DNA from: Promethearchaeum syntrophicum
Lineage (GTDB): Archaea; Asgardarchaeota; Lokiarchaeia; Sigyniarchaeales; Promethearchaeaceae
Direction of reading: 5' to 3'
DNA: 32,000 bases
NCBI RefSeq assembly: GCF_008000775.2
Contig: NZ_CP042905.2
Coordinates: forward strand, 4,140,001-4,172,000
In this document: in pieces, positions 420 to 31,581 of the stretch
Position numbering within the stretch: position 1 is the stretch's first letter
Layout: each line of letters starts with the position of its first letter
Made by a program: the position numbers and the translations under genes
Notes under the pieces: model-generated
What the model saw: the letters and a program-made list of their open reading frames with translations, nothing else
The model's database searches: none
Told to the model about the DNA's origin: nothing

Positions 420-479
420 TATGCACTTAAAATAAACTAAAAATAAAAATCATTGTTAATGATTTTTTTTAATGATTTT

Positions 480-968
480 TTAATCTGAAACCGCTTTTCG
501 TTTTGAAAAGAGGGTCTTCAACTCATCCATTATTGATCCACGTAGGGATACAGGCCCTGCTGGAGCCCCCCCTTTTGGAGGAGGTGCTCTTCCAGGAGGT
601 GGTGGTGGTGCTCCAGGAGGTGGTGACCCAGGTGGCGGTGGTGGTGCTCCGGGACCAGATGCTACTGCTGGAACAGCTAAATTTGCTCCTGCTGCAGCGG
701 CAACTCTAGATTCTACTTGCACTATTCGACCCTCCATTGCTTTTAATCGACCATCGAGACCATTAATTTGATTTGATAGTACTTGGATACTTTGATCTAC
801 CATCTCCGGAATCCTTAACGTGATTGTCATAATCTTCTCGATTACATCGCCCAATCCTTCGACTCGCTCTTTCAATGGTGCTTCACTGTAGCTATTCATT
901 ACGGAAAAGAATTCTTCAGCCATTTTAATTCGACCTAAAAATATTAAATTCAATTTACTGGTAAGCAA
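480..968 (-). CDS. Small protein with an N-terminal helical/coiled-coil region, a polyproline block and a WH2-like C-terminal motif. The likely true start is the internal ATG at 923 (MAEEFF...).
   Basis: ORF track. AGGT lies upstream of ATG 923. The Pro/Gly/Ala-rich block GPGAPPPPPGSPPPGAPPPPPGRAPPPKGGAPAGP is encoded at about 552-656, a local GC-rich island. The C-terminus is SLRGSIMDELKTLFSKRKAVSD (483-548). Confidence 0.75.
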   Translation of the reverse strand: MLTSKLNLIFLGRIKMAEEFFSVMNSYSEAPLKERVEGLGDVIEKIMTITLRIPEMVDQSIQVLSNQINGLDGRLKAMEGRIVQVESRVAAAAGANLAVPAVASGPGAPPPPPGSPPPGAPPPPPGRAPPPKGGAPAGPVSLRGSIMDELKTLFSKRKAVSD

Positions 969-1789: not shown

Positions 1790-2941
1790 ATGACAGAAGA
1801 CCACACAACCTTAGATTTAGAATATGATAGAATGTTATTAGAAGACGTATTTGATTCCCCAAATCTCAGGTACGTATCGTTGTATATGTATATAATTCGG
1901 AAAGATTTATTCCAAGATTTACTGGATGATGATGTCATTGAACAATTTGAAACTATAACATCACTAGATGAACCAACTGTGGAGGATATAACTAGAATAT
2001 GCACAGGAGATTTTATTAAAGCATTATTTCAATATAAAATGATTACCAATCTTCGATCCTATGAAATCTTTCAATCTAAGGGAAATGATTTTAAAATTCG
2101 GTTTGCTAAAGGATTAAATCTAACCCATGATGAATTATCAGAATCCGAAGAGGAAGTTCATATATTTTTCAACGAAGCATATTTAGAAAGAATTTTAAAT
2201 CCTATCATTCCAGAAATGACACAGACTCGAATACATGAATCACTGGAAAGACTTAGAGCGATGATGTGTCCGAAATCATCTATGATTCATGAACTTGTTC
2301 ATAAATATGGGGATTTTTATGTAATTGATGATGATTTCTACTATATTATTGAGGAATTTGGAAATCCCTATCAAGCTTTAAGGATTGAATTAATGATTCG
2401 TGCAATGTCAAGCAAATACAAAGAAATTGAAAGTAATATAAATGAAGTATTAAAGCAATATGATTCTTCAATAGTTAAAGCACCAATAATGAAGAAATTG
2501 AAGCAGGCTAAAGAGAAAGGGAAAGAGGATTATGTTAAATATTTGATCGATAAATCACGTAAAAAAACTCTCCCCCATAAATTTTGGGTTGAATTTCCAG
2601 ATATTGAAATTCCAGATAATTATGTTAAATGGAAAGATTCTTTAAATCAGCTATTTAACCTTAAACTAAAATTTATAGATATTGATCTTAAAATGGATGA
2701 GTTAAGAGCACATTATTCAGGCAAAAACCAAAAAATGACTTATTTGAAATTCATTCAAAAATCTACATATGATGAAGACAATATATCAGAAAGAATTAAG
2801 ACTTTATTAATCGAAGCGCGAAATTCTTTGAAGGAAGTAAGTGAGAATTTAGAGAAATATCCTAAGAAAGAAATGAAATTACTAAATTTAGATATCGAAC
2901 GAATGATAATTGAAAAAGGATTAGATGAGGAAGAAGACTAG
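1790..2941 (+). CDS. Hypothetical protein, operon gene 1 (383 aa, helical, acidic C-terminus)
   Basis: Long ORF in AT-rich DNA. AGGAG sits 6 nt upstream of the ATG. The stop abuts the next gene's start. No motif recognised. Confidence 0.8.
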   Translation: MTEDHTTLDLEYDRMLLEDVFDSPNLRYVSLYMYIIRKDLFQDLLDDDVIEQFETITSLDEPTVEDITRICTGDFIKALFQYKMITNLRSYEIFQSKGNDFKIRFAKGLNLTHDELSESEEEVHIFFNEAYLERILNPIIPEMTQTRIHESLERLRAMMCPKSSMIHELVHKYGDFYVIDDDFYYIIEEFGNPYQALRIELMIRAMSSKYKEIESNINEVLKQYDSSIVKAPIMKKLKQAKEKGKEDYVKYLIDKSRKKTLPHKFWVEFPDIEIPDNYVKWKDSLNQLFNLKLKFIDIDLKMDELRAHYSGKNQKMTYLKFIQKSTYDEDNISERIKTLLIEARNSLKEVSENLEKYPKKEMKLLNLDIERMIIEKGLDEEED

Positions 2942-3916
2942 GTGAAAAATATGGGTGAAATTTGTCCAGCATGTGGAGAAGCAGAACTAACTGAATTAGT
3001 ACCGGGAGTAAAAAGTTGCCCCGCTTGTCGAAAGGTATTTCGTTCGAAGGTTGAAAAGAAAAAAATTCAAAAATCGGAAGGAAAACTTCTTGATGGGGAG
3101 TATTGGATGAAAAATACTACTCTTAATCCAAAATATGAAATTGCCGATAAAGGAATAACGATTTTTAGGGAGGAAAATAAGTTATGGTTTGCAGTTTTAT
3201 TGTGTCATACCCCTGATTTCCCTGATTCAAAATATATTCGATTATCTTGGTGGAAAAAAAGTGTGAATATCCATGCGGGTATGTTTAAAATTGAAGATTT
3301 GGATGAATTAGAAAATGTTTTAATCGCATTGAATCGTATTGAAGAAGATTTCGATGAATATTTTGAAGTAAAGGATAATAAGAAAATTTCATATGAGCCT
3401 ATTCCAGAAAGAAAGGATATTGATGATGAATCTTATGTTTTTAATCTAACTAAAAGAAAATGCCCAAAATGTGGTTGGAAAATGAAAAAAAGTAAAAATC
3501 ATCGCTATTATGAATGTGAAAAATGCGGAGAAATTATCGTATTAGATGATGGGCATCCGATTTATGATATCCCATCAAAATATTTACCAATGTCATATTC
3601 AACTAATTACCCTATCAATTTCTATTTACCCAATTATGGAATTACAGTTAGTAATAAAATGGGGAATTGGAAAGCGATTATCACAATCCATGCAAAAGAA
3701 AACCCCGACAAAAGATGGTTACGATTTTATTGGTGGAGAAGAAATTTCCAACATTATATGACTAGTCAATACTCACTTGGTTCATCCCAAGGATTAAAAT
3801 GGGAAACGCGAAAAGGAGTTATGTCACCCAACATCTATGATAAGAAGTTGATAGCCCCACTAATTAAAGGATTAGAAGAAATGAAGAAAATTTGGTTAAT
3901 GAGTAAAGAGGAATAG
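2942..3916 (+). CDS. Double zinc-ribbon protein with internal two-fold duplication, operon gene 2
   Basis: GTG at 2942, or ATG 9 nt downstream. Ribbon 1 is CPACGEAELTELVPGVKSCPAC and ribbon 2 is CPKCGWKMKKSKNHRYYECEKCG. Each ribbon is followed by a roughly 110-aa domain carrying a WW(K/R)(K/R) motif: YIRLSWWKK and WLRFYWWRR. Confidence 0.8.
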   Translation: MKNMGEICPACGEAELTELVPGVKSCPACRKVFRSKVEKKKIQKSEGKLLDGEYWMKNTTLNPKYEIADKGITIFREENKLWFAVLLCHTPDFPDSKYIRLSWWKKSVNIHAGMFKIEDLDELENVLIALNRIEEDFDEYFEVKDNKKISYEPIPERKDIDDESYVFNLTKRKCPKCGWKMKKSKNHRYYECEKCGEIIVLDDGHPIYDIPSKYLPMSYSTNYPINFYLPNYGITVSNKMGNWKAIITIHAKENPDKRWLRFYWWRRNFQHYMTSQYSLGSSQGLKWETRKGVMSPNIYDKKLIAPLIKGLEEMKKIWLMSKEE

Positions 3917-3918
3917 AG

Positions 3919-5064
3919 ATGGAAAACGAATTAGAAAGCGATTTATGGTCAGAATTGATAGAAAAATTTGGAAATTCTATAAAAAAATCCTTAGAAGTAA
4001 TCAAGGAAAGAGATATTGAGAATATTCCAGGAGCAAAAGAACAATTAATAAGACGCTTTGAAGAATTAAATCGATATCTTCCACGAAATAATGGAGAAAT
4101 TATGATTAAAAGTATAGATGAATCGATTTCGAACTCATTTTTTCCTCAAACCAACAAATTAGCTGTAGCATTTGAAAAAATTTTAAAAACTCTCGAACAA
4201 CAGCATGAAAATGCATTTATAATTAATGAATTAATTAATGGGTTTGTTGCCAGTCAAAGTAAATCGTTTGGATCCTTTAAAGAAGGGCCTATTATAGATC
4301 GTATTATTGAAGCCTTTAAAAAATCAAAGAATTTTCGTATATCTGATTATTCTTTTTATGCAATGTTTGGAAACCCAAATAAACCCAGAAAAAATCTCCA
4401 AACTAATTTGAAATCAATAGCAGAATTTCTTGGATTAGTAAAAGAAGAAAAAATATATGCACGTGATCTTGCTAGAAGTGAGGAAAAAGCAGTTAATTTC
4501 TATACATTCCCTCCGGAAATCTTAGAATTATTAGAAGGAACCTATATTATTCACACTGAAAAAGGCGAGACAATTATTAATGATGATTTTGATAAGAACG
4601 TCTTTACCAGCTTATTCTTGGCAAGATATTCAGTTGGGAGAAAAAACCTAGATGCCTACAAAATAAATGGAATCTGTGCAATTTTTGCTCTTATTCTCAT
4701 ATTAAGCTTTATGCCTAAAGTTAAATTAGCGGAAAATAACCCTATTTTACGTGATCGTAATTATGATTCCCAAAATATGAGTGTGATTCCGAAATCTTGG
4801 ATGATGAAAGAAGTTTTAGTAGAGTTACTTCCTAGCACTATCGAAATAGTAGCATATAGAATGGGAGCATCTCTATGGTATAATAAAATCGAAAAATCTG
4901 ATGCTCAAAAACGATTGCATCTTCAAACTCGATTTTTAATTAAGGATGTTAATAAATGGGTACTAGGAAACTTGTGTAGAGTAGAAATCCCAATATTTGT
5001 TGAAATAAGTAATATTTTCCAGGAAATTACTGTAGATGGAACAGATACGGATTATAATAATTAA
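3919..5064 (+). CDS. Hypothetical protein, operon gene 3 (381 aa)
   Basis: GAGGA lies upstream of the ATG, with a 2-nt gap from gene 2. One segment, VFTSLFLARYSVGRKNLDAYKINGICAIFALILIL, resembles a segment of gene 4. Confidence 0.8.
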   Translation: MENELESDLWSELIEKFGNSIKKSLEVIKERDIENIPGAKEQLIRRFEELNRYLPRNNGEIMIKSIDESISNSFFPQTNKLAVAFEKILKTLEQQHENAFIINELINGFVASQSKSFGSFKEGPIIDRIIEAFKKSKNFRISDYSFYAMFGNPNKPRKNLQTNLKSIAEFLGLVKEEKIYARDLARSEEKAVNFYTFPPEILELLEGTYIIHTEKGETIINDDFDKNVFTSLFLARYSVGRKNLDAYKINGICAIFALILILSFMPKVKLAENNPILRDRNYDSQNMSVIPKSWMMKEVLVELLPSTIEIVAYRMGASLWYNKIEKSDAQKRLHLQTRFLIKDVNKWVLGNLCRVEIPIFVEISNIFQEITVDGTDTDYNN

Positions 5065-5084
5065 CACATATACGGTGAAAAATC

Positions 5085-6332
5085 ATGGCACGTGAAAGAT
5101 GGGAAGAAATTGTAGCATATTATAAAACTTACATTTCGATACTTCAACCTTTATTGAAAGAAACCAGAAGACTTTTCTTAGATTTGACTTCAGAAGAATT
5201 ACTGGATTTTTCAGCTTTACAAGAAAAATTGGAAGAGGAAACTAAAAGAAAAATCAATACAGTAAAAGCCATTGCAGAATTTAATGCTTTTTTCAGGAAA
5301 GAGATTTTTAAACATATTCTTAACTATATCGGAGAAGTTCAGAAAGATTTTGAAGTCCTTGATATAAAGGATAATATAATAGATTTCCTAGATGAATCTA
5401 TTCATGCATTTGATGGTTTATTAGCCTTAATTCAAGAAGATTTTTCAAAACAAGAAGGATCCCCCTTGAATTTTCTGTTCGACTTGTTAAATGAAATATT
5501 ACTTCCAAATGGAGATAATCTGGAAAGTATTTATGAACAGTTATTAGAAAAATCTGAAGAGTGGTATGAAGCTCAAAGGCATATTCTTAGCCCAACTACA
5601 TTTTATAGGGAAAAAATTGGAGAAATGACAATTCCTGGATTAAGTCCAAAAACATATCAGATTATAAATGGGATTACCTCACTTTTTAACCTCGATCCAA
5701 ATTATTTGGATATGGATGAAAATCCTAATTATGTTGTACCTGCAATTATGGTCTCTGACATTTTTGAACCTTACATAGATAATATTGCAAATGCTGAGGA
5801 AGAGTCAATTAAAAGAATTTGCAGTAGATTGGAATTACGAATCACTGATGGAATTTTTATATCTCCCTCAGAGGAATTATTACAATTAGCAGAACCGCAT
5901 AACTTTTTCAGTAGACAAAATGATTCAGATGGAAAAACTCGTTGGATTCCTCAATTCAGTAATGAAACATTTGTATTATTATACTTAGCAAAGGTATCCA
6001 TGCGAAGAGGGTTCCTTTCAAAAGAACTAATTAATTGGATATCGATGAATTTCTCATTTATTATTTATAACACAGTTTTACACGCAAATCTATCCGATGA
6101 GAATATTTTTTATAATTTATTCTTAGATCTTAAAACTGAAGAAAAAATCATTCCGTATTTAATGAAAATCTTGTGTTTTGAGAATTATCTTAGATTAGAC
6201 AGAACTAAAATACGTGATTCTCCGGTATACAGGAAAGAACTATTCAATTTTCTAGGATCAAAAATTGAAATAATTGATAAAATAACATATCTACTAGTAG
6301 AGAAATATGAAAAATTTATGAATCCTAAATAA
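5085..6332 (+). CDS. Hypothetical protein, operon gene 4 (415 aa), possible distant paralogue of gene 3
   Basis: GGTGA lies upstream of the ATG. The segment TFVLLYLAKVSMRRGFLSKELINWISMNFSFIIYN aligns by eye with the gene 3 segment (shared pattern F..L.LA[RK].S..R..L....IN.I...F..I). Confidence 0.8.
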   Translation: MARERWEEIVAYYKTYISILQPLLKETRRLFLDLTSEELLDFSALQEKLEEETKRKINTVKAIAEFNAFFRKEIFKHILNYIGEVQKDFEVLDIKDNIIDFLDESIHAFDGLLALIQEDFSKQEGSPLNFLFDLLNEILLPNGDNLESIYEQLLEKSEEWYEAQRHILSPTTFYREKIGEMTIPGLSPKTYQIINGITSLFNLDPNYLDMDENPNYVVPAIMVSDIFEPYIDNIANAEEESIKRICSRLELRITDGIFISPSEELLQLAEPHNFFSRQNDSDGKTRWIPQFSNETFVLLYLAKVSMRRGFLSKELINWISMNFSFIIYNTVLHANLSDENIFYNLFLDLKTEEKIIPYLMKILCFENYLRLDRTKIRDSPVYRKELFNFLGSKIEIIDKITYLLVEKYEKFMNPK

Positions 6333-6352
6333 AAAAAAAAAAGTGAAAAATA

Positions 6353-7423
6353 ATGACATTTACAATTGAAGAAATGCAACAGCGTTTCAGAAAATTTGGG
6401 ACAATTTATTCAGGTGATGATATCAGAGAAGATGTTGAAGATATTATCGGATTGGAAGATAAAAAAGAGATGATGGCTGATTTTTTTCTATCATTAAAAA
6501 AATATGGCGACATAGCTTCTAACTTACAAGCTGCAAAAATCGCACCTAATTTTACTATGTTACTATATGGCCCTCCTGGAACAGGCAAAACAGCATTAAC
6601 TAGAGCAATGGCAAAGAAATACGAGATTCCAATGGGACTAGTTGATGCAGATAGGTTAGTATCTCCATTATTGGGAGATACTGTGAAAAATATTCGAGGA
6701 GTATTCGATTTAGCAGCAGAATTTTCAAAGGAAAATGGCGTATTTCTTCTTTTTTTTGATGAAATTGATGCCATAACAGGAGAACGTGCAAATGCACATG
6801 AAGTAGGTGAAATTAAAAGAGCAGTCATATCTTTCTTACAAATAATTGATAAAATTTCTTATGATGCTATCCCTCTAGCAATCTTCGGAGCAACGAATCA
6901 TGAAAAACAATTAGATTCAGCCATATGGAGAAGATTTACGTATCATTTAAAATTTCAATTTCCAAATTTTATTGTTCGTAAAAATATCCTAGAATCTTTC
7001 ATTCTCCGAGTTGAAAAAGCAACAATTGGAATAGATCCACGCTTAACGGAATCAATTGAATCAGAATATAAATTTTTATTCCAGAGATATTCAAAATTGA
7101 AAGAAAAATTAGGAAGAGAATTGAACGACGAAGAATATTATGGAATTTTTGATGAATTGAAACAAAAGGGTAAAGAAGGAATTCTATATCATACTTTAGG
7201 ATATACAGGGGCAGATTTAATGCGGGCAATGAGGGTAGCTTTGTTCAAAGCATTACAAAAGAATATGTTGTTGTATGATGATTATTTTCGATCCTTAGAA
7301 TTAGTCGGAGGAACTGAAACACACGTTTTACAAGGATTACGACTAGCTAAAGAGAATTCAGCAAACCAAGAGGAAAATAAACCTCCTACAAGTGATTTAA
7401 GTGATTTTGATATAGATATTTAA
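6353..7423 (+). CDS. Classic-clade AAA ATPase with a very short N-terminal region and an acidic C-terminal tail, operon gene 5
   Basis: Walker A is GPPGTGKT (about 6569-6592) and Walker B is LLFFDEID (D-E at 6758-6763). Sensor-1/SRH reads GATNHEKQLDSAIWRRF. The lid motif is GYTGADLMRAMRVAL. No MIT, CDC48-N or other N-domain is seen. Confidence 0.9.
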   Translation: MTFTIEEMQQRFRKFGTIYSGDDIREDVEDIIGLEDKKEMMADFFLSLKKYGDIASNLQAAKIAPNFTMLLYGPPGTGKTALTRAMAKKYEIPMGLVDADRLVSPLLGDTVKNIRGVFDLAAEFSKENGVFLLFFDEIDAITGERANAHEVGEIKRAVISFLQIIDKISYDAIPLAIFGATNHEKQLDSAIWRRFTYHLKFQFPNFIVRKNILESFILRVEKATIGIDPRLTESIESEYKFLFQRYSKLKEKLGRELNDEEYYGIFDELKQKGKEGILYHTLGYTGADLMRAMRVALFKALQKNMLLYDDYFRSLELVGGTETHVLQGLRLAKENSANQEENKPPTSDLSDFDIDI

Positions 7424-7566: not shown

Positions 7567-8265
7567 ATGGAATTACTTTCTGAACAGATTAATAATAATA
7601 TCTCCGATATGGCAATAATTTTTAAGAAAATTCAGAAATTTCTAACTGAAGATTATCAAAACGAACTGTTTTTTGACATGCAAAATCTTTCAAAATATTC
7701 AATTGTAAAAGAAATAGGTATTAATCTTCTTAAAAATCGAATTCTCGAAAAACCAATAGAAAGCGATAATATTGTATTTGCAATATATAAAAAATATTGG
7801 GACGCATTGCTACAAAGAATGATTAAATCTTCTAAATTCAATTCTACAATAGAAAAACTAAAAAATTTTCATTATGAGGCTATTAATGATAAAATTAATG
7901 AAGAACTAAAGAAAATCCCAATAGAGATAGATCCAAGTGTAAGGGATGACTACAAAAAAGCATATTATAGTAATCCTTTAACTTTTAGTGAATATCTAAA
8001 TTTTGAACAGAAAAAGCATAAAGAAAGCCAATATTCTCAAGAACAACCAGATTCTTTTAATTCCTCAGAGAAATTACGGAAAGAATTTGTGATGGCCGTT
8101 GAAAAAAAAAAAATTGACAAGAAAAAGGAAGAACAGGAAAAGCAATTTGATAATTATAATGCGTATTTCAACATGGATGATCGCCAATTACAACGCGCTA
8201 AAAGAAATGGAAAAATGAGAAGAAAATATACTAAAAAAACGCGAAAGGAGAAATACAAAAAATGA
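7567..8265 (+). CDS. Hypothetical helical protein with a strongly basic K/R-rich C-terminal tail, operon gene 6. The N-terminus may extend upstream to about 7438.
   Basis: The C-terminus is RAKRNGKMRRKYTKKTRKEKYKK. The stop overlaps the next start (ATGA at 8262-8265). The reading frame is open upstream to 7411, with GAGGGG (7431-7436) preceding ATT/ATA codons. Confidence 0.75.
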   Translation: MELLSEQINNNISDMAIIFKKIQKFLTEDYQNELFFDMQNLSKYSIVKEIGINLLKNRILEKPIESDNIVFAIYKKYWDALLQRMIKSSKFNSTIEKLKNFHYEAINDKINEELKKIPIEIDPSVRDDYKKAYYSNPLTFSEYLNFEQKKHKESQYSQEQPDSFNSSEKLRKEFVMAVEKKKIDKKKEEQEKQFDNYNAYFNMDDRQLQRAKRNGKMRRKYTKKTRKEKYKK

Positions 8266-9893
8266 TTAAACTTAATATTGATTCACATGAAATTCCTATT
8301 AATCAAAAACTGATGTTTCTCCAAGGAAATTATGATATTAATACAATTGAGAATCTTCCTTATTCTTGGATTGACTGGAATGAAAATCTAGAGATTTTAT
8401 TTAGAGACTCAGATTTGTTGATTGAATTTTTTTCACGTTTAAATTCCATTATCACTCATCAAAATTCAAAAAAAATAGGTTTAATATCTGATATCTGGAG
8501 AAATCTATATTCTACATTAAAAGAAAATAAAAATAATATTGCAAAATATGAAAAATTCAATGAGCTCAGTAAAAATTTGCGAAGTAAATCAAATTTGCTT
8601 CAAGATATTGAACGTTTAGAGTTAATGGAAAAAAATCTTGACCAAATGGTAAATCAAAGCATCTTTCAAAGTAAAAAAGATTTATTGCTTAAATTAGAAA
8701 AATTACTCGTAACACAAACTACAGAATTTAATATTCAATCTGATGAATTTTTTGTTAATAAACAAAGAGTTGATGAAAATCTTGCAATAATAACAAAATT
8801 TGACAACAATTTATCACGATTAAAGCAAGAACAAAGAATATTATTTAAGGAAACAAACGAACTCACAAAACAAATGGATTCTTTGGAGCCTTTAATGAAT
8901 GTTTATCAAGAAAAGCTTGAAGTGATTGATTCCTATAAAAATGGTAAAGATTATAATAGAATTAAAAAGAAATTCGAAGATATTGTAAAGGAACATGAAG
9001 ATTGCAAAAACGATAGAGTCCTCAAAATTAAAAAAAGCAAAGATATTACTCAAAAAATGCGGAATTTGCGAGTTCAGATTAAAAAAAATAACAATGATTT
9101 AAGAAAATTAGATTTGTCAAAGTTTAATGAAATTAAAAAAAACTATGAAGATTTAAAAACCGATCTCGAAAATACAAAAACTCAGATTACCTCAGTTCGA
9201 TTAGAAATTGATTCAATGTTAAATAACAGTGAAAAAAATGTCTCTCAAAATGATTTAAATCAAGATGATATGTTTTATTCAAACCCCACCGAAATTAAAG
9301 AACAATTGAAAAAGAAACGAAATCTAATCAGCCAAATCAATGATTTCTTTGAGAATACATATGATACCACCGATTTAGAGATAATTAAAAAGAAAATTGA
9401 TGCTGATAGAAGAAATTTATTGGATGAACTTACTTCCAATTCAGAAAAGCTTCAACTTTCATCTGAGAAATCTCACTATTATGAAGATTTATTAAAGAGA
9501 ATTAAAGAAATTCAATCATGGATGAATAAATTTTTGAGCAAAATTGATATGAAAATATCATTCTCTCTAGCATTTGATAAAGAAAACCTGAAATTAACAA
9601 ATAAAATTATGAAAAAAAATCAATATATCAACTTTAACACGGATTTAAAAAGAATTGAAAAAGCGTTTTTTTATTTTAGTGCGATAATTAGCAGTTACTT
9701 AGGAGAAAACTATAGGTTTATTCCCATAAGGATTAATAAATTGCCAAAATTTATGATAACGAAACAAAATTTCATAAAAAATATCAAAATGCTTGATGAT
9801 ATGTGTGAGGAATTACCTGAAGATATTAATATTATATTTTTTTTAGAAGAAAACAAGTTCGAAATTCCGTTAGAAATTATTAAAATTGACTAA
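8262..9893 (+). CDS. Long coiled-coil protein with SMC/Rad50/RecF-like end regions lacking a P-loop and Walker B (candidate degenerate SMC-like protein), operon gene 7
   Basis: AGGAG lies upstream. The N-terminus MIKLNIDSHEIPINQKLMFLQGNYDINTIENLPYS follows the SMC-head beta-strand pattern but has no GxxGxGKS. The central roughly 350 aa are K/E/L/N-rich heptad-like sequence. The C-terminus LKRIEKAFFYFSAIISSYLGENYRFIPIRINKL...INIIFFLEE mimics the signature/Walker-B/D-loop layout without the catalytic residues. Confidence 0.8.
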   Translation: MIKLNIDSHEIPINQKLMFLQGNYDINTIENLPYSWIDWNENLEILFRDSDLLIEFFSRLNSIITHQNSKKIGLISDIWRNLYSTLKENKNNIAKYEKFNELSKNLRSKSNLLQDIERLELMEKNLDQMVNQSIFQSKKDLLLKLEKLLVTQTTEFNIQSDEFFVNKQRVDENLAIITKFDNNLSRLKQEQRILFKETNELTKQMDSLEPLMNVYQEKLEVIDSYKNGKDYNRIKKKFEDIVKEHEDCKNDRVLKIKKSKDITQKMRNLRVQIKKNNNDLRKLDLSKFNEIKKNYEDLKTDLENTKTQITSVRLEIDSMLNNSEKNVSQNDLNQDDMFYSNPTEIKEQLKKKRNLISQINDFFENTYDTTDLEIIKKKIDADRRNLLDELTSNSEKLQLSSEKSHYYEDLLKRIKEIQSWMNKFLSKIDMKISFSLAFDKENLKLTNKIMKKNQYINFNTDLKRIEKAFFYFSAIISSYLGENYRFIPIRINKLPKFMITKQNFIKNIKMLDDMCEELPEDINIIFFLEENKFEIPLEIIKID

Positions 9894-14509: not shown

Positions 14510-15532
14510 TTGGCGAATTGTAGTTTTCCAGAATGCGATGAGGTCTTAAATTACTTACCTTTTCGATGCAGATACTGTGGTGGAACTTACTGTAAAAAAC
14601 ACAGACTACCAGAAAATCATAAATGTTCCTTTGAGCTTCAAATACAACCTAAGAAAGAGGTTTCCCAAGAATTAAAACATTTAAAAGAAGAAGAGAAAAA
14701 ATCTAAAAATAATCAAATTCCTGAAGATAAATCCTATGAACAAATCGATAAGGAAATGCGTAATTATATTCGAGAACAAGAAAGAGCTGCAATGCCCCCA
14801 CCTCCAAGTCGTACGAGAGGAACTTTTGGTAGTCGTTCAAGAGGATATTCTCCTTTTATTTCGAGATCCAGTAAGCCAATAGGGACTTACTCCTTAATGG
14901 GATTATCAACTTTATTTTTTATTCTCTCACAAATTCAAGTGATTCCAGAATATATTTTACTTAATTTAAATACTCTTAGATTTGAATTCTTAACCCACTT
15001 TCCTTCTTTTTTCACAGCAATATTAACTCCTAATGGTTTGATTTCATGGATATTTACATTACTCATTCTATTTTGGTCTGGTAAAGTAATTGAAATGCAG
15101 ATGGGAACTAAATTCTTATTAACATTATATTTACTATCTGGTATTGCAAACGGTTTTGCGATTATTTTACTCCAATCGATAGGTCTTTTTATTAATATTC
15201 CGTTTTTTACTGCTATGACATATAATTTAAATTTATATTCTACTCAAAATGGCGCGTATTATGGATTAATGGTATTTATTCTTTATCGAATCGGGTTAGA
15301 TCGTGAAATGCGATTTTATCTATATTTTATTCCTGTTAGAATGAAAGCTAAATACATTCTCTATTTCATGATTGGAATCCAATTAATATATGGAGGTTTT
15401 GGAATAGTGAGAATTTTACTTGAATTGGAGGGTGCATATTATATTTTATCTTCTTTACCCCAACTTGGAGGAATTTTAGTCGGAGCTTACTTCTGGAAGA
15501 AATTTGGACGTCAAATAGTGAATTTTGTGTAA
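14510..15532 (+). CDS. AN1-type zinc-finger protein fused to a rhomboid-like multi-pass membrane domain that appears to lack the catalytic Ser/His
   Basis: TTG start with GGAG upstream. The AN1 pattern is CSFPEC...FRCRYCGGTYCKKHRLPENHKC. The rhomboid-like layout is WSGKVIEMQMGTKFLLTLYLLSGIANG...TQNGAYYGL...PQLGGILVG. Confidence 0.75.
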   Translation: MANCSFPECDEVLNYLPFRCRYCGGTYCKKHRLPENHKCSFELQIQPKKEVSQELKHLKEEEKKSKNNQIPEDKSYEQIDKEMRNYIREQERAAMPPPPSRTRGTFGSRSRGYSPFISRSSKPIGTYSLMGLSTLFFILSQIQVIPEYILLNLNTLRFEFLTHFPSFFTAILTPNGLISWIFTLLILFWSGKVIEMQMGTKFLLTLYLLSGIANGFAIILLQSIGLFINIPFFTAMTYNLNLYSTQNGAYYGLMVFILYRIGLDREMRFYLYFIPVRMKAKYILYFMIGIQLIYGGFGIVRILLELEGAYYILSSLPQLGGILVGAYFWKKFGRQIVNFV

Positions 15533-15574: not shown

Positions 15575-16924
15575 ATGGATGATATAATGAGCATTGAATT
15601 TGAGGTTTTTATCGAGATTCCAAAAATCGCCGGGAAAATTGAAATTCCTAATAATCAAGAATTGATACATATTGGAAAACGCGAAATTAAAAATAGTGTT
15701 GTAAAAAATTTATCAGATCCAAGAGCTTTCGATTCAATTTCTAGCGTAAGAACTGATAAAGATACAGGAGCAGTAATTAAACAACAATTTATAATATCCA
15801 GAGTAAAAGATAAATATTTCATTGAAGATCAGAATAGCGCTAATGGCACGTATTTAGGAGGGATTAATCTTAAACAAAGCCCCCCAGCACCCTTGAAAAG
15901 CGGAGATGAAATTATAATTCCTATTGAAGAAAATGGTGAATTAATTCAGCTAAAAATGTATTTTCATATTGAAAAAAAAAAATCTGCTCCAGGAGCTCAA
16001 TCACAGCAGAAACAAATCCATTATCCAACACTGGATTTAGATGAAGCAGAATATTCTGATCCTACAATAACCCCTACAATCCCATCTTCGGCAAATCAAG
16101 CAGTAAAGGCAGGTTCATATCAATATAAATCCTTTATTTATGATCCCAACGATCCGATAAACACTTCCAATAGTTTTATTATGATACAGAGAACTCAAGC
16201 CATTCCACCCAATGCTTTCCAACCCAATTCTGGTTTAGACCTTTCAATGGTATATAAATTAGAAAAAAGTGAATTTTGGCATATCTTAGTTGCAGTGGGA
16301 TTGCTTTTTCTAATGATTTATAGGTATTATATAAATATTAATTTAATATTTTTAATTATCGGCTTGATAACTGATTCTCCGGGTCCTTCTTTAAATGATT
16401 TCTTTATTCAACCCTTACCTATTGCTCTTATTTTCGGTATTTCATTTATAACTCATGAATTATCTCACTTACAAACAGGAAAACATTTCAATTTTCAAAG
16501 TAGGTTTTGTCTAACTAAAGTTGGTGTAAAAGCCACTTTAAAATGGGCATTAATTGGATTTCCTTTTGGTCTCCCGGGTGCTGCGGTTTCAGTTGGTGTC
16601 GATCCAGTTAAAGATGAGGATAAGATGGGTTGGATAAAAATCGCGGGTCCATTTTCAAATTTTGTTTTAGGAGTAATTTTTATAATTCTTGCATTTTTCA
16701 TTCCAAGTGGCTCAATTATTGATTTAAAAGCCATTTTCGTACAAGCTAGTTCCTTAAATTTTGTTTTAGGAGCGTTTAATATGATTCCGCGAGAAGTGAA
16801 AGGATTTGCATTGGACGGGAAATTTATCATTAAATGGAATAAACCATGGTATTTTACGCTACTAGCAGGTTTAATATTGGGTTTTGCAACCGCAATTTTT
16901 TACTCCAATTCAGTTAATACTTAA
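15575..16924 (+). CDS. FHA domain fused to an M50 (site-2 protease) family intramembrane metalloprotease
   Basis: The FHA pattern is IHIGKREI...FIISRVKDKYFIEDQNSANGTYLGGINL...LKSGDEIIIP. HELSH lies at 16454-16468 in a TM helix. The downstream NMIPREVKGFALDG matches the M50 N..P....LDG motif. Confidence 0.8.
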   Translation: MDDIMSIEFEVFIEIPKIAGKIEIPNNQELIHIGKREIKNSVVKNLSDPRAFDSISSVRTDKDTGAVIKQQFIISRVKDKYFIEDQNSANGTYLGGINLKQSPPAPLKSGDEIIIPIEENGELIQLKMYFHIEKKKSAPGAQSQQKQIHYPTLDLDEAEYSDPTITPTIPSSANQAVKAGSYQYKSFIYDPNDPINTSNSFIMIQRTQAIPPNAFQPNSGLDLSMVYKLEKSEFWHILVAVGLLFLMIYRYYININLIFLIIGLITDSPGPSLNDFFIQPLPIALIFGISFITHELSHLQTGKHFNFQSRFCLTKVGVKATLKWALIGFPFGLPGAAVSVGVDPVKDEDKMGWIKIAGPFSNFVLGVIFIILAFFIPSGSIIDLKAIFVQASSLNFVLGAFNMIPREVKGFALDGKFIIKWNKPWYFTLLAGLILGFATAIFYSNSVNT

Positions 16925-29058: not shown

Positions 29059-29697
29059 TTATAACACTGTGGTTAAAAAACTAATCCAAGTTCCTATGAG
29101 CAAAAACGCAATAAAATATTGAAAAAAATGATTTATTTTCACAAAACCATTTTTCAATGCTAATTTTGAATACTTTTTAATTGTTTCTTCTGGTAAAAAA
29201 ATCCCGGTATTCTTAAAAAATTCATGAAATCGGATCACAATACGTTTATTCCATTTAATGTATTGAACGATGAAATAAATAAAACCCACAGTTTCAGCTA
29301 TTATTAGAAATAGTCCTATAGCATAGATTGAGAATTTTTCAAGAATACCTGCAACGAAAAAAACAAGAAAAACTATTATCCCTTCTGTTATCAAAATTGG
29401 ATTAAATTTGTTGTAGTTATACTTATCTTTCCAGTCTATTGCACTATCACCGGCCATTTGTACAGCGATATAAGGAATTCCATGTTCGTAACTATTTGCA
29501 TGAATGCCGATTTTTAAAACATCATCCTGAATATCTAAATAGTGATCCAAATCATCATGTTCTATTGTTTCTTCGAAATCAGCAATTTTTGCTTTAGTAG
29601 GTTCTTTTTCACGAGTTTCATTTAATTTCACATCATAGAAAATTTTTAAGAGTTTATTTTCAGCTTCTTCTTTCGATAGCATATCAATCAAATCCAT
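29059..29697 (-). CDS. Tandem-array membrane protein paralogue, type C (divergent)
   Basis: It shares the family layout: EEAENKLLKIFYDVKL...ANSYEHGIPYIAV...2 TM...KWNKRIVIRFHEFFKNTGIFLPEE...C-terminal TM. Confidence 0.8.
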   Translation of the reverse strand: MDLIDMLSKEEAENKLLKIFYDVKLNETREKEPTKAKIADFEETIEHDDLDHYLDIQDDVLKIGIHANSYEHGIPYIAVQMAGDSAIDWKDKYNYNKFNPILITEGIIVFLVFFVAGILEKFSIYAIGLFLIIAETVGFIYFIVQYIKWNKRIVIRFHEFFKNTGIFLPEETIKKYSKLALKNGFVKINHFFQYFIAFLLIGTWISFLTTVL

Positions 29698-29717
29698 TCA
29701 TTTTTGATCTATTCTCA

Positions 29718-30326
29718 CTAAGAAAAAATAATTCCCCAACTTATGAAGAGAATGAAAACAGTAAAACCATGTATAGCATTAATAATTACAAAAGCATCAA
29801 GGAAAAGTTTTTTTGCATAATATTTTATTCTTTCTTCCGCTAAAAATATACCAGTGTTTTTAAATAACTCCCGAAATCGTAATAAAACACGTTTTTTCCA
29901 ATTTATTTTTAGAATTATAAAATAAATTAGAATTCCTGTTCCAATTATATCTATAATAATTGCTCCTAAAAGGGAATAAGATTTAACAAGCATTGCAAGG
30001 ATAAAAGTAATAAATGGGAGGATTGTATGGAATAATATATAAAGTTTCAAATATTTGGAAAAAATATCCTCATTCCAGTGTAGAGCACTATCATGAGCCA
30101 TATTTACTGCAAAATATGGAATTCCATGTTCATAATTATTTGCCCACATGGCTATTACTAGCTCGTCATCCTTTACTTTATAAAAATGCTCTTCAGGATC
30201 CGGAATATTTGTTTCTTCAAACATATCAATATTTGCATGGGAAGGGCGTTTTTTCAAATATCGATCCAATTTTACATCATAATAGATTTTTAGCAGTTTT
30301 TCTTCTGCTTCTTCTTTAGATATCAT
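29718..30326 (-). CDS. Tandem-array membrane protein paralogue, type A (copy 1)
   Basis: MISKEEAEEKLLKIYYDVKLDRYLKKRPSHANIDMFEET...HFYKVKDDELVIAMWANNYEHGIPYFAV...NWKKRVLLRFRELFKNTGI. Confidence 0.8.
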   Translation of the reverse strand: MISKEEAEEKLLKIYYDVKLDRYLKKRPSHANIDMFEETNIPDPEEHFYKVKDDELVIAMWANNYEHGIPYFAVNMAHDSALHWNEDIFSKYLKLYILFHTILPFITFILAMLVKSYSLLGAIIIDIIGTGILIYFIILKINWKKRVLLRFRELFKNTGIFLAEERIKYYAKKLFLDAFVIINAIHGFTVFILFISWGIIFS

Positions 30327-30328
30327 CT

Positions 30329-30943
30329 CTATGCTCCTTTACTGAATCCCATAACCCAGCTGATAACGAACAAAAAAATAACGAAACCTTGAAGTATAGT
30401 AATACCAATCAAATCAGAAAAACGTGATTTTGAATGTTTTTTTATTTCTTCTTCAGGTAAATTTATCCCTGTGTTTTCAAATAACTCTCTAAAACGAATT
30501 AAAACACGTTTTTTCCAGTTTATTTTTAATACTATGAAATAAATAATAATTCCTGTCCCCAGTATATTTAAGAGAATTGCTCCAATAAGTGAATAAAGCC
30601 TAATAAAACCTACCAAAGTCATAAAAATTAAGGGGATAATCAAATGAGAATTTATATAAAGTTTCATACGTTTTCGCAAAGAATCCTCACGCCAGTACTT
30701 TGCACTATCACAAGCCATAATTACAGCAAAAAAGGGAATTCCATGTTCATAGCTATTTGCAAACATTCCAATATTCAAAGTATCATCTTTAATACCAAAC
30801 CAATCATCTAAATCATCAGGATCTTTTGTTTCTTCGAAATCGACAATTTTCGCACTGGTAGGATATAAGTCAAAATAGCTATCCAATTTTACATCATAAA
30901 AAATTTTTAGCAGTTTTTCTTCTGCTTCCTCTTTTGATACCAT
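30329..30943 (-). CDS. Tandem-array membrane protein paralogue, type B (copy 1)
   Basis: MVSKEEAEEKLLKIFYDVKLDSYFDLYP...MFANSYEHGIPFFAV...NWKKRVLIRFRELFENTGI...SKSRFSDLIGITILQGFVIF...GFSKGA. The gap to the downstream gene is 2 nt. Confidence 0.8.
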   Translation of the reverse strand: MVSKEEAEEKLLKIFYDVKLDSYFDLYPTSAKIVDFEETKDPDDLDDWFGIKDDTLNIGMFANSYEHGIPFFAVIMACDSAKYWREDSLRKRMKLYINSHLIIPLIFMTLVGFIRLYSLIGAILLNILGTGIIIYFIVLKINWKKRVLIRFRELFENTGINLPEEEIKKHSKSRFSDLIGITILQGFVIFLFVISWVMGFSKGA

Positions 30944-30975
30944 GTAATCAGCTCGTTTGATTTTTATCTATATTT

Positions 30976-31581
30976 TTATGTGAATATTATTACCCAACTT
31001 AATAAGAGCAAGAAAAATGCAAAACATTGAATGGTATTAAAAGAAGAAAAATCATTGTATAGTCTTTTTGAATATTGTTTGAATTTTTCTTCGGAAATAC
31101 TTATACCGGTGTCATCAAAGAACTCTCTGTATCGGATTAAAACTCGTTTTTTCCAATTATTTTTTAACACAACGAAATAAATTATAACACCAGTTACTAT
31201 CAAGTTTATCAAAATTGCTCCAAAAAGTGATTTAGATTTAATAATATACCCTAAAAAAAAAAAGATTAAAGGTAACAGCATATGGGATATTGTATATATG
31301 ATTAAATATTTGGATAAAGGATCTCCACGCCAAGATTCTGCACTATCAATAGCCATATTAACTGCAAAAAAAGGAATCCCATGTTCATAGCTATTTGCCC
31401 ACATGGCTATTACTAATTCATCATCCTTTACCTTATAAAAATGCTCTAGATGATTAAGATCTTTCGTTTCTTCAAACATGTCAATATTTGCATGGGTAGG
31501 GGTTTTTTTCAAATAACGATCCAATTTTACATCATAAAAAATTTTTAACAGTTTTTCTTCTGCTTCTAATTTAGAAATCAT
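30976..31581 (-). CDS. Tandem-array membrane protein paralogue, type A (copy 2)
   Basis: MISKLEAEEKLLKIFYDVKLDRYLKKTPTHANIDMFEET...HFYKVKDDELVIAMWANSYEHGIPFFAV...NWKKRVLIRYREFF. Confidence 0.8.
   Translation of the reverse strand: MISKLEAEEKLLKIFYDVKLDRYLKKTPTHANIDMFEETKDLNHLEHFYKVKDDELVIAMWANSYEHGIPFFAVNMAIDSAESWRGDPLSKYLIIYTISHMLLPLIFFFLGYIIKSKSLFGAILINLIVTGVIIYFVVLKNNWKKRVLIRYREFFDDTGISISEEKFKQYSKRLYNDFSSFNTIQCFAFFLLLLSWVIIFT

Follow-up and report, generated by a model that had tools for sequence, protein, structure and literature searches.

A proline-rich protein family of Asgard archaea with a conserved terminal helix resembling the F-actin-binding block of Ena/VASP proteins

The window analysed is a stretch of 32,000 nucleotides of the Promethearchaeum syntrophicum genome (contig NZ_CP042905.2, positions 4,140,001 to 4,172,000, forward strand); positions are counted from its first letter. 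The gene at 480..923 (-) is complete and encodes a protein of 147 amino acids (aa). By sequence and homologues, it belongs to an undescribed, conserved, Asgard-wide family of modular proteins consisting of a helix, a proline-rich linker and an invariant terminal helix. In profile comparison the terminal helix specifically resembles the F-actin-binding (FAB) block of Ena/VASP proteins. The protein is tentatively read as an oligomeric proline-rich factor binding actin or actin filaments, with a probability of roughly 0.4.

The open reading frame (ORF) starts with ATG at 923-921 and ends with TAA at 482-480. The full sequence of the protein is MAEEFFSVMNSYSEAPLKERVEGLGDVIEKIMTITLRIPEMVDQSIQVLSNQINGLDGRLKAMEGRIVQVESRVAAAAGANLAVPAVASGPGAPPPPPGSPPPGAPPPPPGRAPPPKGGAPAGPVSLRGSIMDELKTLFSKRKAVSD. 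A longer ORF of 162 aa, starting from TTG at 968, is present in the ORF listing. The TTG is unlikely to be the true start; ATG 923-921 is probably the start codon, since most homologues begin with MAEEF, MADEF or close variants (e.g. MSDEF).

The structure was predicted with AlphaFold2 from a 37-sequence alignment. A short N-terminal helix, AEEFFSVMNSYS, occupies residues 2-13 (885..920, (-)); its family consensus is MAxEFxxxLxS, with F5 nearly invariant. A single long conserved helix follows at residues 17-80 (684..875, (-)), with 10-residue block means of the predicted local distance difference test (pLDDT) of 92-98 across residues 21-70. The linker, residues 81-123 (555..683, (-)), is rich in Pro, Gly and Ala and disordered, residues 81-121 being mostly below pLDDT 50. 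It includes the GC-rich island of the gene, the polyproline block GPGAPPPPPGSPPPGAPPPPPGRAPPPKGG (residues 90-119, 567-656, (-)) and two GAPPPPPG units of the type bound by profilin in Ena/VASP. The C-terminal conserved motif PVSLRGSIMDELKTLFSKRK (residues 124-143, 495..554, (-)), recognised by alignment, AlphaFold2 and hhalign, is a helix followed by a basic cluster. The predicted helix spans residues 127-146 (block mean 92 across residues 131-140), with a hydrophobic face formed by I131, M132, L135, L138 and F139 and a net charge of +3 to +4. A short tail, AVSD (483..494, (-)), is variable in the alignment.

The first-pass annotation of the stretch, made from its letters, had described a helical, coiled-coil-like N-terminal part, a polyproline block and a terminal helix. 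This description is correct, because AlphaFold2 gives a helix, a disordered linker and a terminal helix. Its tail, SLRGSIMDELKTLFSKRKAVSD at 483-548, corresponds exactly to residues 126-147, and its conspicuous GC-rich island is real: GC is 0.52-0.68 over 501-700, versus about 0.25-0.4 in the flanks (100-base windows; about 0.3 around the island). The polyproline block had been placed at about 552-656; the end is accurate, and the start measures 567.

Homologues in the protein collection number 38. All are unannotated, none (0/38) has a Pfam domain, and the three with a source name bear the labels Promethearchaeota or Hodarchaeota. A scan for the motif as a degenerate DNA pattern, each prokaryotic species being represented by one genome, yields at least 120 motif-bearing species-level genomes. 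Among the matches listed, every stretch encodes a protein ending in a Pro/Gly-rich region plus the motif, and complete ORFs are about 110-180 aa long. Nearly all of these records are Promethearchaeota or 'uncultured archaeon' metagenome-assembled genomes (MAGs), with the lineage labels Loki, Thor, Hermod, Hod, Odin and Sigyn; the cultured Ca. Lokiarchaeum ossiferum is included. The relatives nearest to the window protein among them are 'Promethearchaeum sp.' MAGs. Among the matches listed, the family occurs in Asgard archaea and nowhere else convincingly. Two records bear odd labels: L063 (DATKTW010000134.1, Nanopelagicaceae bacterium) and L035 (WJJB01000420.1, Bathyarchaeota). Both contigs hold typical members with Asgard-type neighbours and have probably been binned into the wrong MAGs.

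Conservation within the family peaks in the C-terminal motif, far above the rest of the protein. P124, L127, I131, M132, E134, L135, K136, L138 and K141 do not vary among the 37 aligned sequences, and the family pattern is [ST]L[RK]-x-[SA]-IM-x-ELK-x-L[FL]-x-K[RK][RK]. The first-pass annotation had proposed checking the terminal motif in orthologues, its absence there counting against an actin-related role; the proposal survives on this point, because the motif is the most conserved part of the orthologues. Family statistics were taken over 148 unique full-length members. Their median length is 147.5 aa, with 3-16 residues between the end of the motif and the C-terminus. At least one [GASLI]P>=4 run is present in 119/148 members and at least two in 54/148; XPPPPP runs lie directly N-terminal to the motif in 119/148. 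The 60 residues preceding the motif are 34% Pro and 21% Gly. In some relatives the motif is followed by a poly-Asp/Glu tail with up to 11 acidic residues, or by W-E-N-[ED]. Such tails are confined to few clades (at least four D/E in 9/148 members, Trp in 5/148).

At first impression the motif is closer to the FAB block of Ena/VASP than to WH2. For comparison, real VASP, ENAH and EVL sequences were fetched for profiles of the FAB block and of the G-actin-binding (GAB) block, the FAB profile being vertebrate-only; tetramerisation and GAB segments matched PDB chains. The FAB blocks of VASP (GGGLMEEMNAMLARRRKAT), ENAH (GSGLMEEMSALLARRRRIA), EVL (GGGLMEEMNKLLAKRRKAA) and a more divergent VASP homologue (GGGLMGEMSAILARRRKAA) align without gaps to the family motifs RGSIMDELKSLFSKRRTAS and RGAIMGELKQLFAKRK. 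In hhalign, motif and FAB match with a probability of 78-82% and P values of 1e-5 to 2e-5 over 16-18 columns in register, GSIMDELKSLFSKRRTAS standing opposite GGLMEEMNAMLARRRKAT. The observed score of 21.6 is reached by 0/1000 column permutations (null mean 7.3, maximum 17.5). A sliding-window test took 176 windows of 22 columns from three helical Asgard families: motif windows alone score 15-21.5, the next scores 11.2, and the median is 5.4. When the FAB hidden Markov model (HMM) is run over 1620 Asgard ORFs, the C-termini of the family rank first. The FAB block binds F-actin, WH2-like properties being merely proposed; the proline-rich region of Ena/VASP recruits profilin-actin; the EVH2 domain combines tetramerisation with G- and F-actin binding; and a monomeric DdVASP mutant is non-functional in solution (PMC3034019).

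The tail had at first been taken, from a by-eye alignment with WH2 helices, for a WH2 motif, and the protein for a minimal polyproline-WH2 actin regulator. The family-wide order of helix, proline tract and terminal helix upholds the general layout; WH2 membership is rejected. There is no LKKV: the position of its Leu is the invariant Lys K141, and the family has KR[RK] or K-[RQ]-[RK]. Pfam searches with eight tail peptides at E <= 10 return no match at all, although weak matches of such short length may be lost to the speed filters of HMMER. For 37 whole proteins, the top 25 Pfam families do not include WH2. The motif profile finds neither WH2 nor formin DAD among PDB chains at E <= 10, and a possible similarity to the formin DAD was dropped on that result. 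The GAB block, which is WH2-like, served as a negative control for FAB: with the Ena/VASP sequences fetched, hhalign gives P = 0.2 with 2 columns aligned. In a WH2, a short helix would be followed by an extended LKKV segment; the AlphaFold2 model has instead a single unbroken helix of 20 residues. The acidic and W-E-N-[ED] tails recall the WASP acidic region; they are too rare for the tail to be regarded as such a region, and the window protein ends AVSD. It is very unlikely, therefore, that a true G-actin-binding WH2 is combined here with a profilin-binding tract in a nucleation-promoting factor of WASP/WIP type. The WH2-like motifs so far described in Asgard archaea are LKKT-type linkers of two-domain gelsolins (PMC9433394; bioRxiv 2025.11.30.690169).

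The motif is a module, joined to N-terminal contexts of at least three kinds. As a 28-position profile in an exhaustive search, it returns 24 proteins at E <= 1e-3, about 20 of them with a clear motif copy; the weakest few are low-complexity or repeat proteins. Outside the family, the motif is carried by two proteins of about 400 aa with an Arf-type GTPase and by a 210-aa protein with another N-terminus; a zinc-ribbon protein carries an internal copy. A search with one of the Arf-type proteins yields 106 Asgard proteins (P0119, P0125-P0229), mostly of about 400-430 aa and all with Pfam Arf. Nearly all end in R..[IV][LMIV].EL[KN].LF.K[KR][KR]. The two motifs match each other in hhalign with P 1.4e-13, and the complete family alignments with a probability of 99.1%, E 1.3e-18, over 116 columns. 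The whole window protein aligns to the last approximately 120 residues of the approximately 410-aa Arf-like family, its short N-terminal helix falling on the segment just past the GTPase domain. Judged by this alignment of the entire protein, the target gene therefore corresponds to the C-terminal arm of an Arf-like GTPase, encoded on its own. In the AlphaFold2 model of P0119, a helical N-domain and the GTPase are followed by a long helix, a disordered linker and a terminal helix. Term searches of two papers on Asgard Arf GTPases found no mention of the C-terminal extension or the motif. Two Arf-like loci were inspected: at L127 the gene (8001-9278) adjoins inositol-1-phosphate synthase and inositol-phosphate-kinase-like genes, and at L128 (8001-9245) a PAP2 phosphatase gene. 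An 'Arf' of 38.1 kDa enriched in the L. ossiferum Lokiactin co-immunoprecipitation (co-IP) was considered as a possible link; no fetched motif-bearing homologue has that mass, and the link was dropped.

In the long helix, a specific conserved block, VEGLxDVIEKIM..IP.MVD, occupies the first half, and a heptad-like coiled coil, SIQVLSNQINGLDGRLKAMEGRIVQVESRV, the second; all 37 aligned sequences keep E29 and P39. A PDB profile search with the window family returns mostly generic coiled coils, many of them trimeric, and the long helix is presumed to be an oligomerisation or partner-binding element. Matches of the whole protein in Pfam, NCBIfam and PDB (Baculo_PEP_C, DEC-1_N, BLOC1_2, FlaC, GCN4 adaptors, BRICK1 at E 0.0086, BimA_second at E 0.0029) were judged compositional, being of generic coiled-coil or low-complexity type. 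Foldseek finds no match of the AlphaFold2 model in PDB. The N-terminal helix of some members (L064, L100, L103), KIAEEFNSMLAATRKAPLD, gives a weak FAB HMM match of 3.6 bits; its equivalent in the window protein is the helix at 885-920. This match is probably due to chance, and two similar helices might be present in one family protein.

The shape of the terminal helix also bears on a membrane role. An amphipathic, basic C-terminal helix on a Pro/Gly stalk could tether both this protein and the Arf-like GTPases to a membrane, with the coiled coil displayed as a scaffold. The single hydrophobic face and positive net charge agree with this, as does the position at the extreme C-terminus after a disordered linker, which is that of small-GTPase anchors. 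The Arf-like genes adjoin inositol-phosphate and lipid-phosphatase genes. According to bioRxiv 2024.02.28.582541, Asgard ArfR proteins bind the membrane via an N-terminal amphipathic helix. In the AlphaFold2 model of the approximately 410-aa family an extra N-terminal domain takes the place of that helix. Such anchoring is nonetheless unlikely as the role of the motif. Residues are invariant, including the charged E134 and K136, across deep lineages and two paralogous families, which is unusual for lipid-binding helices. In some members 6-11 consecutive Asp/Glu directly follow the helix. With a hydrophobic moment of 0.09-0.15, the 18-mer scores low, like the VASP FAB (0.12); the MinD and FtsA anchors have moments of 0.29 and 0.57, above that of the family.

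Published proteome data are available for the L. ossiferum orthologue, which lies at CP104013.1, approximately 2,628,799-2,629,257. The gene upstream of it encodes the zinc-ribbon protein Elf1 (L007 4036-4656), with a monoisotopic mass of 24.013 kDa. This fits GNAMCCOK_02218 (24.01 kDa) in the available part of the supplementary table of bioRxiv 2025.11.30.690169. Because gene order and the mass of the neighbour match, the orthologue is very probably GNAMCCOK_02219. In the available proteome data of the same source, GNAMCCOK_02219 is quantified in 16/16 columns with a mean log2 of 18.47; the values for comparison are actin 21.69, 2DGel1 20.11, Pro1 19.51, Gel2 18.69, GelX 18.64, Pro2 17.38 and 2DGel2 17.27. 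In these columns the abundance of the inferred orthologue is thus comparable to that of gelsolins (17.3-20.1) and profilins (17.4-19.5). GNAMCCOK_02218, the match of Elf1 by mass, is modestly enriched in the available Lokiactin co-IP rows (log2 1.36, adjusted p 0.034), an enrichment that may be non-specific. The name 'ProGel' was considered as denoting a proline-rich gelsolin and dropped; the meaning in the paper is 'prototypical gelsolin'.

Several points, besides the rejection of WH2 membership, weigh against an actin-binding role. The Lokiactin co-IP rows listed extend at least to log2 ratios of 0.31 and do not include GNAMCCOK_02219, and this absence counts weakly against a stable actin complex; the weight is small because profilin B35_Pro1 is also not enriched in those rows (0.31, not significant). 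No actin gene was found in 126 loci by tblastn with a human beta-actin query. The P>=4 run is missing in 29/148 members. FAB was picked as the comparison after the motif had been seen. Against single sequences the FAB HMM is weak, at no more than 8 bits, the best match in the 1620-ORF set having 6.6 bits and E 0.5. A common origin with the Ena/VASP FAB is doubtful, because Ena/VASP is not known to be pan-eukaryotic; the likeness may be convergent or fortuitous. Finally, Loki and Odin profilins are reported not to bind VASP polyproline (PMC8410842).

Two of these results, the absence from the co-IP rows listed and the lack of synteny with actin, are also what a docking-peptide adaptor would give. 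In such an adaptor the C-terminal helix would plug into a non-actin hub, the Pro/Gly region being a mere tether; candidates for the hub are the conserved protein cc205 (206 aa, all-helical, N-terminus MPIITHEDE), a domain belonging to the Arf-like GTPase system and a Roadblock/LC7 protein. The gene for cc205 is found in 101 loci, and in 91 of them it lies directly upstream of the target on the same strand (median gap 133 bp, usually 112-150 bp), a pattern typical of subunits of one complex. Examples are L004 9251-9874, L006 9609-10244 and L005 8570-9181; cc205 is not present in the window. At Hod- and Sigyn-type loci a gene for a protein of about 145 aa with a weak MAPKK1_Int match (Roadblock/LC7 fold) stands between target and cc205 (L005 9298-9744 (-), L006 9055-9489 (+), also L035, L036 and L087). 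Both the N-helix and the C-helix are common to the Arf-like family. Docking leaves unexplained, however, the specific in-register FAB resemblance and the XPPPPP runs placed as in profilin-recruiting proteins. In the window's clade (window, L001, L007, L090, L117), moreover, cc205 is not adjacent and the upstream gene is Elf1, with the motif unchanged; cc205 is lost from this position there. A docking adaptor is a somewhat improbable alternative. Sub-threshold FCH/F-BAR matches of cc205 were obtained in 3/14 representatives (best E 5.7e-4, 20.6 bits versus a cut-off of 27.8), all on one region; the F-BAR likeness is a hint, not a finding.

Two neighbours accompany the target in many genomes: Elf1, the next gene upstream in the window on the same strand (Pfam E 7e-18), and a divergent cluster of five genes (window 1790-7423 (+)), whose place beside the target is conserved in many Asgard genomes. 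The cluster encodes proteins of 383 aa, 324 aa (zinc ribbons), 381 aa and 415 aa and a 356-aa AAA ATPase. It is also present at L004 11309-17325 and L001 3469-9114, divergent from Elf1. Significant family matches are lacking for four of its five proteins, the 324-aa protein giving sub-threshold zinc-ribbon matches only, and the cluster is not a known defence system in PADLOC. The presence of an AAA ATPase brings up an ESCRT-III-like MIT-interacting motif (MIM), in which the C-terminal helix would be bound by the MIT domain of an AAA ATPase, e.g. that of the cluster. The layout agrees with MIM1, in which a flexible linker precedes a C-terminal helix. The MIM1 consensus is (D/E)xxLxxRLxxL(K/R); in the family, invariant E134 stands at the Arg position, and F139 takes the place of the terminal basic residue. 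The AAA protein of the cluster is nearest to p97-D1 and IetA, not to Vps4, and about 60 residues precede its AAA domain. A helix of 80 residues is too short for an ESCRT-III core, and Snf7 is not among the top Pfam families. The idea was rejected on the consensus mismatch and the type of ATPase, and is extremely improbable.

For the oligomeric actin-binding factor preferred here, the following mechanism is proposed. The coiled coil would render the protein multivalent. The terminal helix would bind actin, more probably the filament or its barbed-end region, in a FAB-like way, than a monomer as a classic WH2 does. The proline runs would recruit profilin or profilin-actin, or serve as a stiff spacer. 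Together these parts could tether, bundle or feed Lokiactin filaments, probably at membranes, with cc205 as a possible membrane partner. Because the same module forms the C-terminal part of the Arf-like family, the stand-alone protein may be a GTPase-independent version of an Arf-like effector arm. Functionally it would work like the EVH2 half of Ena/VASP, without being an Ena/VASP member. A wider claim is doubtful: that the family is a phylum-wide class of actin regulators, a polyproline and FAB-like oligomer acting as the missing ligand of the profilins and tethering or elongating Lokiactin, with its arm carried on an Arf GTPase and its gene paired with a BAR-like protein. If true, it would amount to a prokaryotic GTPase-to-membrane-to-actin assembly module predating or paralleling the logic of Ena/VASP, WASP and formins.

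Asgard cells build dynamic actin-filled protrusions and crawl. The actin regulators named for them in recent papers are profilins and gelsolins only; no Asgard nucleator, elongator or membrane-to-actin linker is known, and the natural polyproline partners of Asgard profilins are undefined. Full-text literature searches found no polyproline protein with a WH2-, FAB- or VASP-like motif described in Asgard archaea. The family is a concrete and cheap candidate for testing, because its members are small and well expressed, occur in almost all Asgard archaea and combine profilin-type runs, a FAB-like helix and homology to the Arf tail. If the actin reading is true, the design of polyproline plus actin-binding helix predates eukaryogenesis or arose independently. 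If the helix is a membrane anchor or a docking peptide instead, it is a new targeting module common to two Asgard-wide families.

A terminator-like element, read from the sequence, lies directly after the stop codon (439..465, (-)). It consists of an 8-bp inverted repeat, AAATCATT/AATGATTT (465-458 and 454-447), and a T-rich tract (446-439). This arrangement suggests that the target gene ends its own transcript. Elsewhere in the window, two adjoining genes of membrane-protease type have unusual fusions, one of an AN1 zinc finger to a rhomboid-like domain (14510-15532 (+)) and one of an FHA domain to an M50 peptidase (15575-16924 (+)). Four tandem genes at 29059-31581 (-) encode proteins of 201-212 aa with no significant Pfam match and may form a paralogous array.

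Designs that join a proline tract to an actin-binding-type helix and an oligomeriser are already well known in eukaryotes and bacterial pathogens. With the Arf-like proteins the window protein has true homology over the N-helix, coiled coil, linker and terminal motif; it differs in lacking the N-terminal helical domain and the GTPase and in having a linker richer in polyproline.

Ena/VASP proteins share with the window family the GPPPPP-type runs, a helix and Arg/Lys cluster in register with FAB (I/L-M-D/E-E-L/M-x-x-L/M-F/L-x-K/R-R-R), an oligomerising coiled coil (predicted in the window protein) and, overall, a multivalent set of small actin-binding-like modules. Unlike them, the window protein has no WH1/EVH1 match, its N-terminus being a single long helix. 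It has one actin-binding-like helix, with no GAB/WH2 block and no second helix between proline tract and terminal motif. Its coiled coil is N-terminal, not C-terminal, and VASP_tetra (PF08776) is not among its Pfam matches. It is about 147 aa long, versus about 380 aa in human VASP. Common ancestry with Ena/VASP is unproven; EVH1, GAB and the C-terminal tetramerisation domain are absent.

WH2 domains (PF02205) are likewise short amphipathic helices followed by basic residues and set beside proline tracts, and LKKT-like actin contacts are already present in this phylum, in gelsolins (PMC9433394). The window motif differs from them in its Lys at the Leu position of L-K-K-[VT], in the lack of HMM or profile similarity and in a tail predicted to be helical right through the basic cluster. 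With WASP/WAVE proteins the family shares the order of helical or coiled-coil N-terminus, Pro-rich region and C-terminal helix of actin-binding type, and, in few members, acidic or Trp-containing tails; it differs in having no central region and nothing pointing to Arp2/3. The N-helix profile weakly matches BRICK1/HSPC300 of the WAVE complex in PDB, but the match sits among many better generic coiled-coil matches. Burkholderia BimA, one of the bacterial proteins that mimic Ena/VASP, with its trimeric coiled coil, proline-rich motifs and WH2, likewise unites minimal oligomerising, proline-rich and actin-binding elements. The NCBIfam BimA_second match (16.5 bits versus a cut-off of 600) is far under threshold and probably compositional. 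BimA differs from the window protein in being a surface autotransporter with true WH2 motifs.

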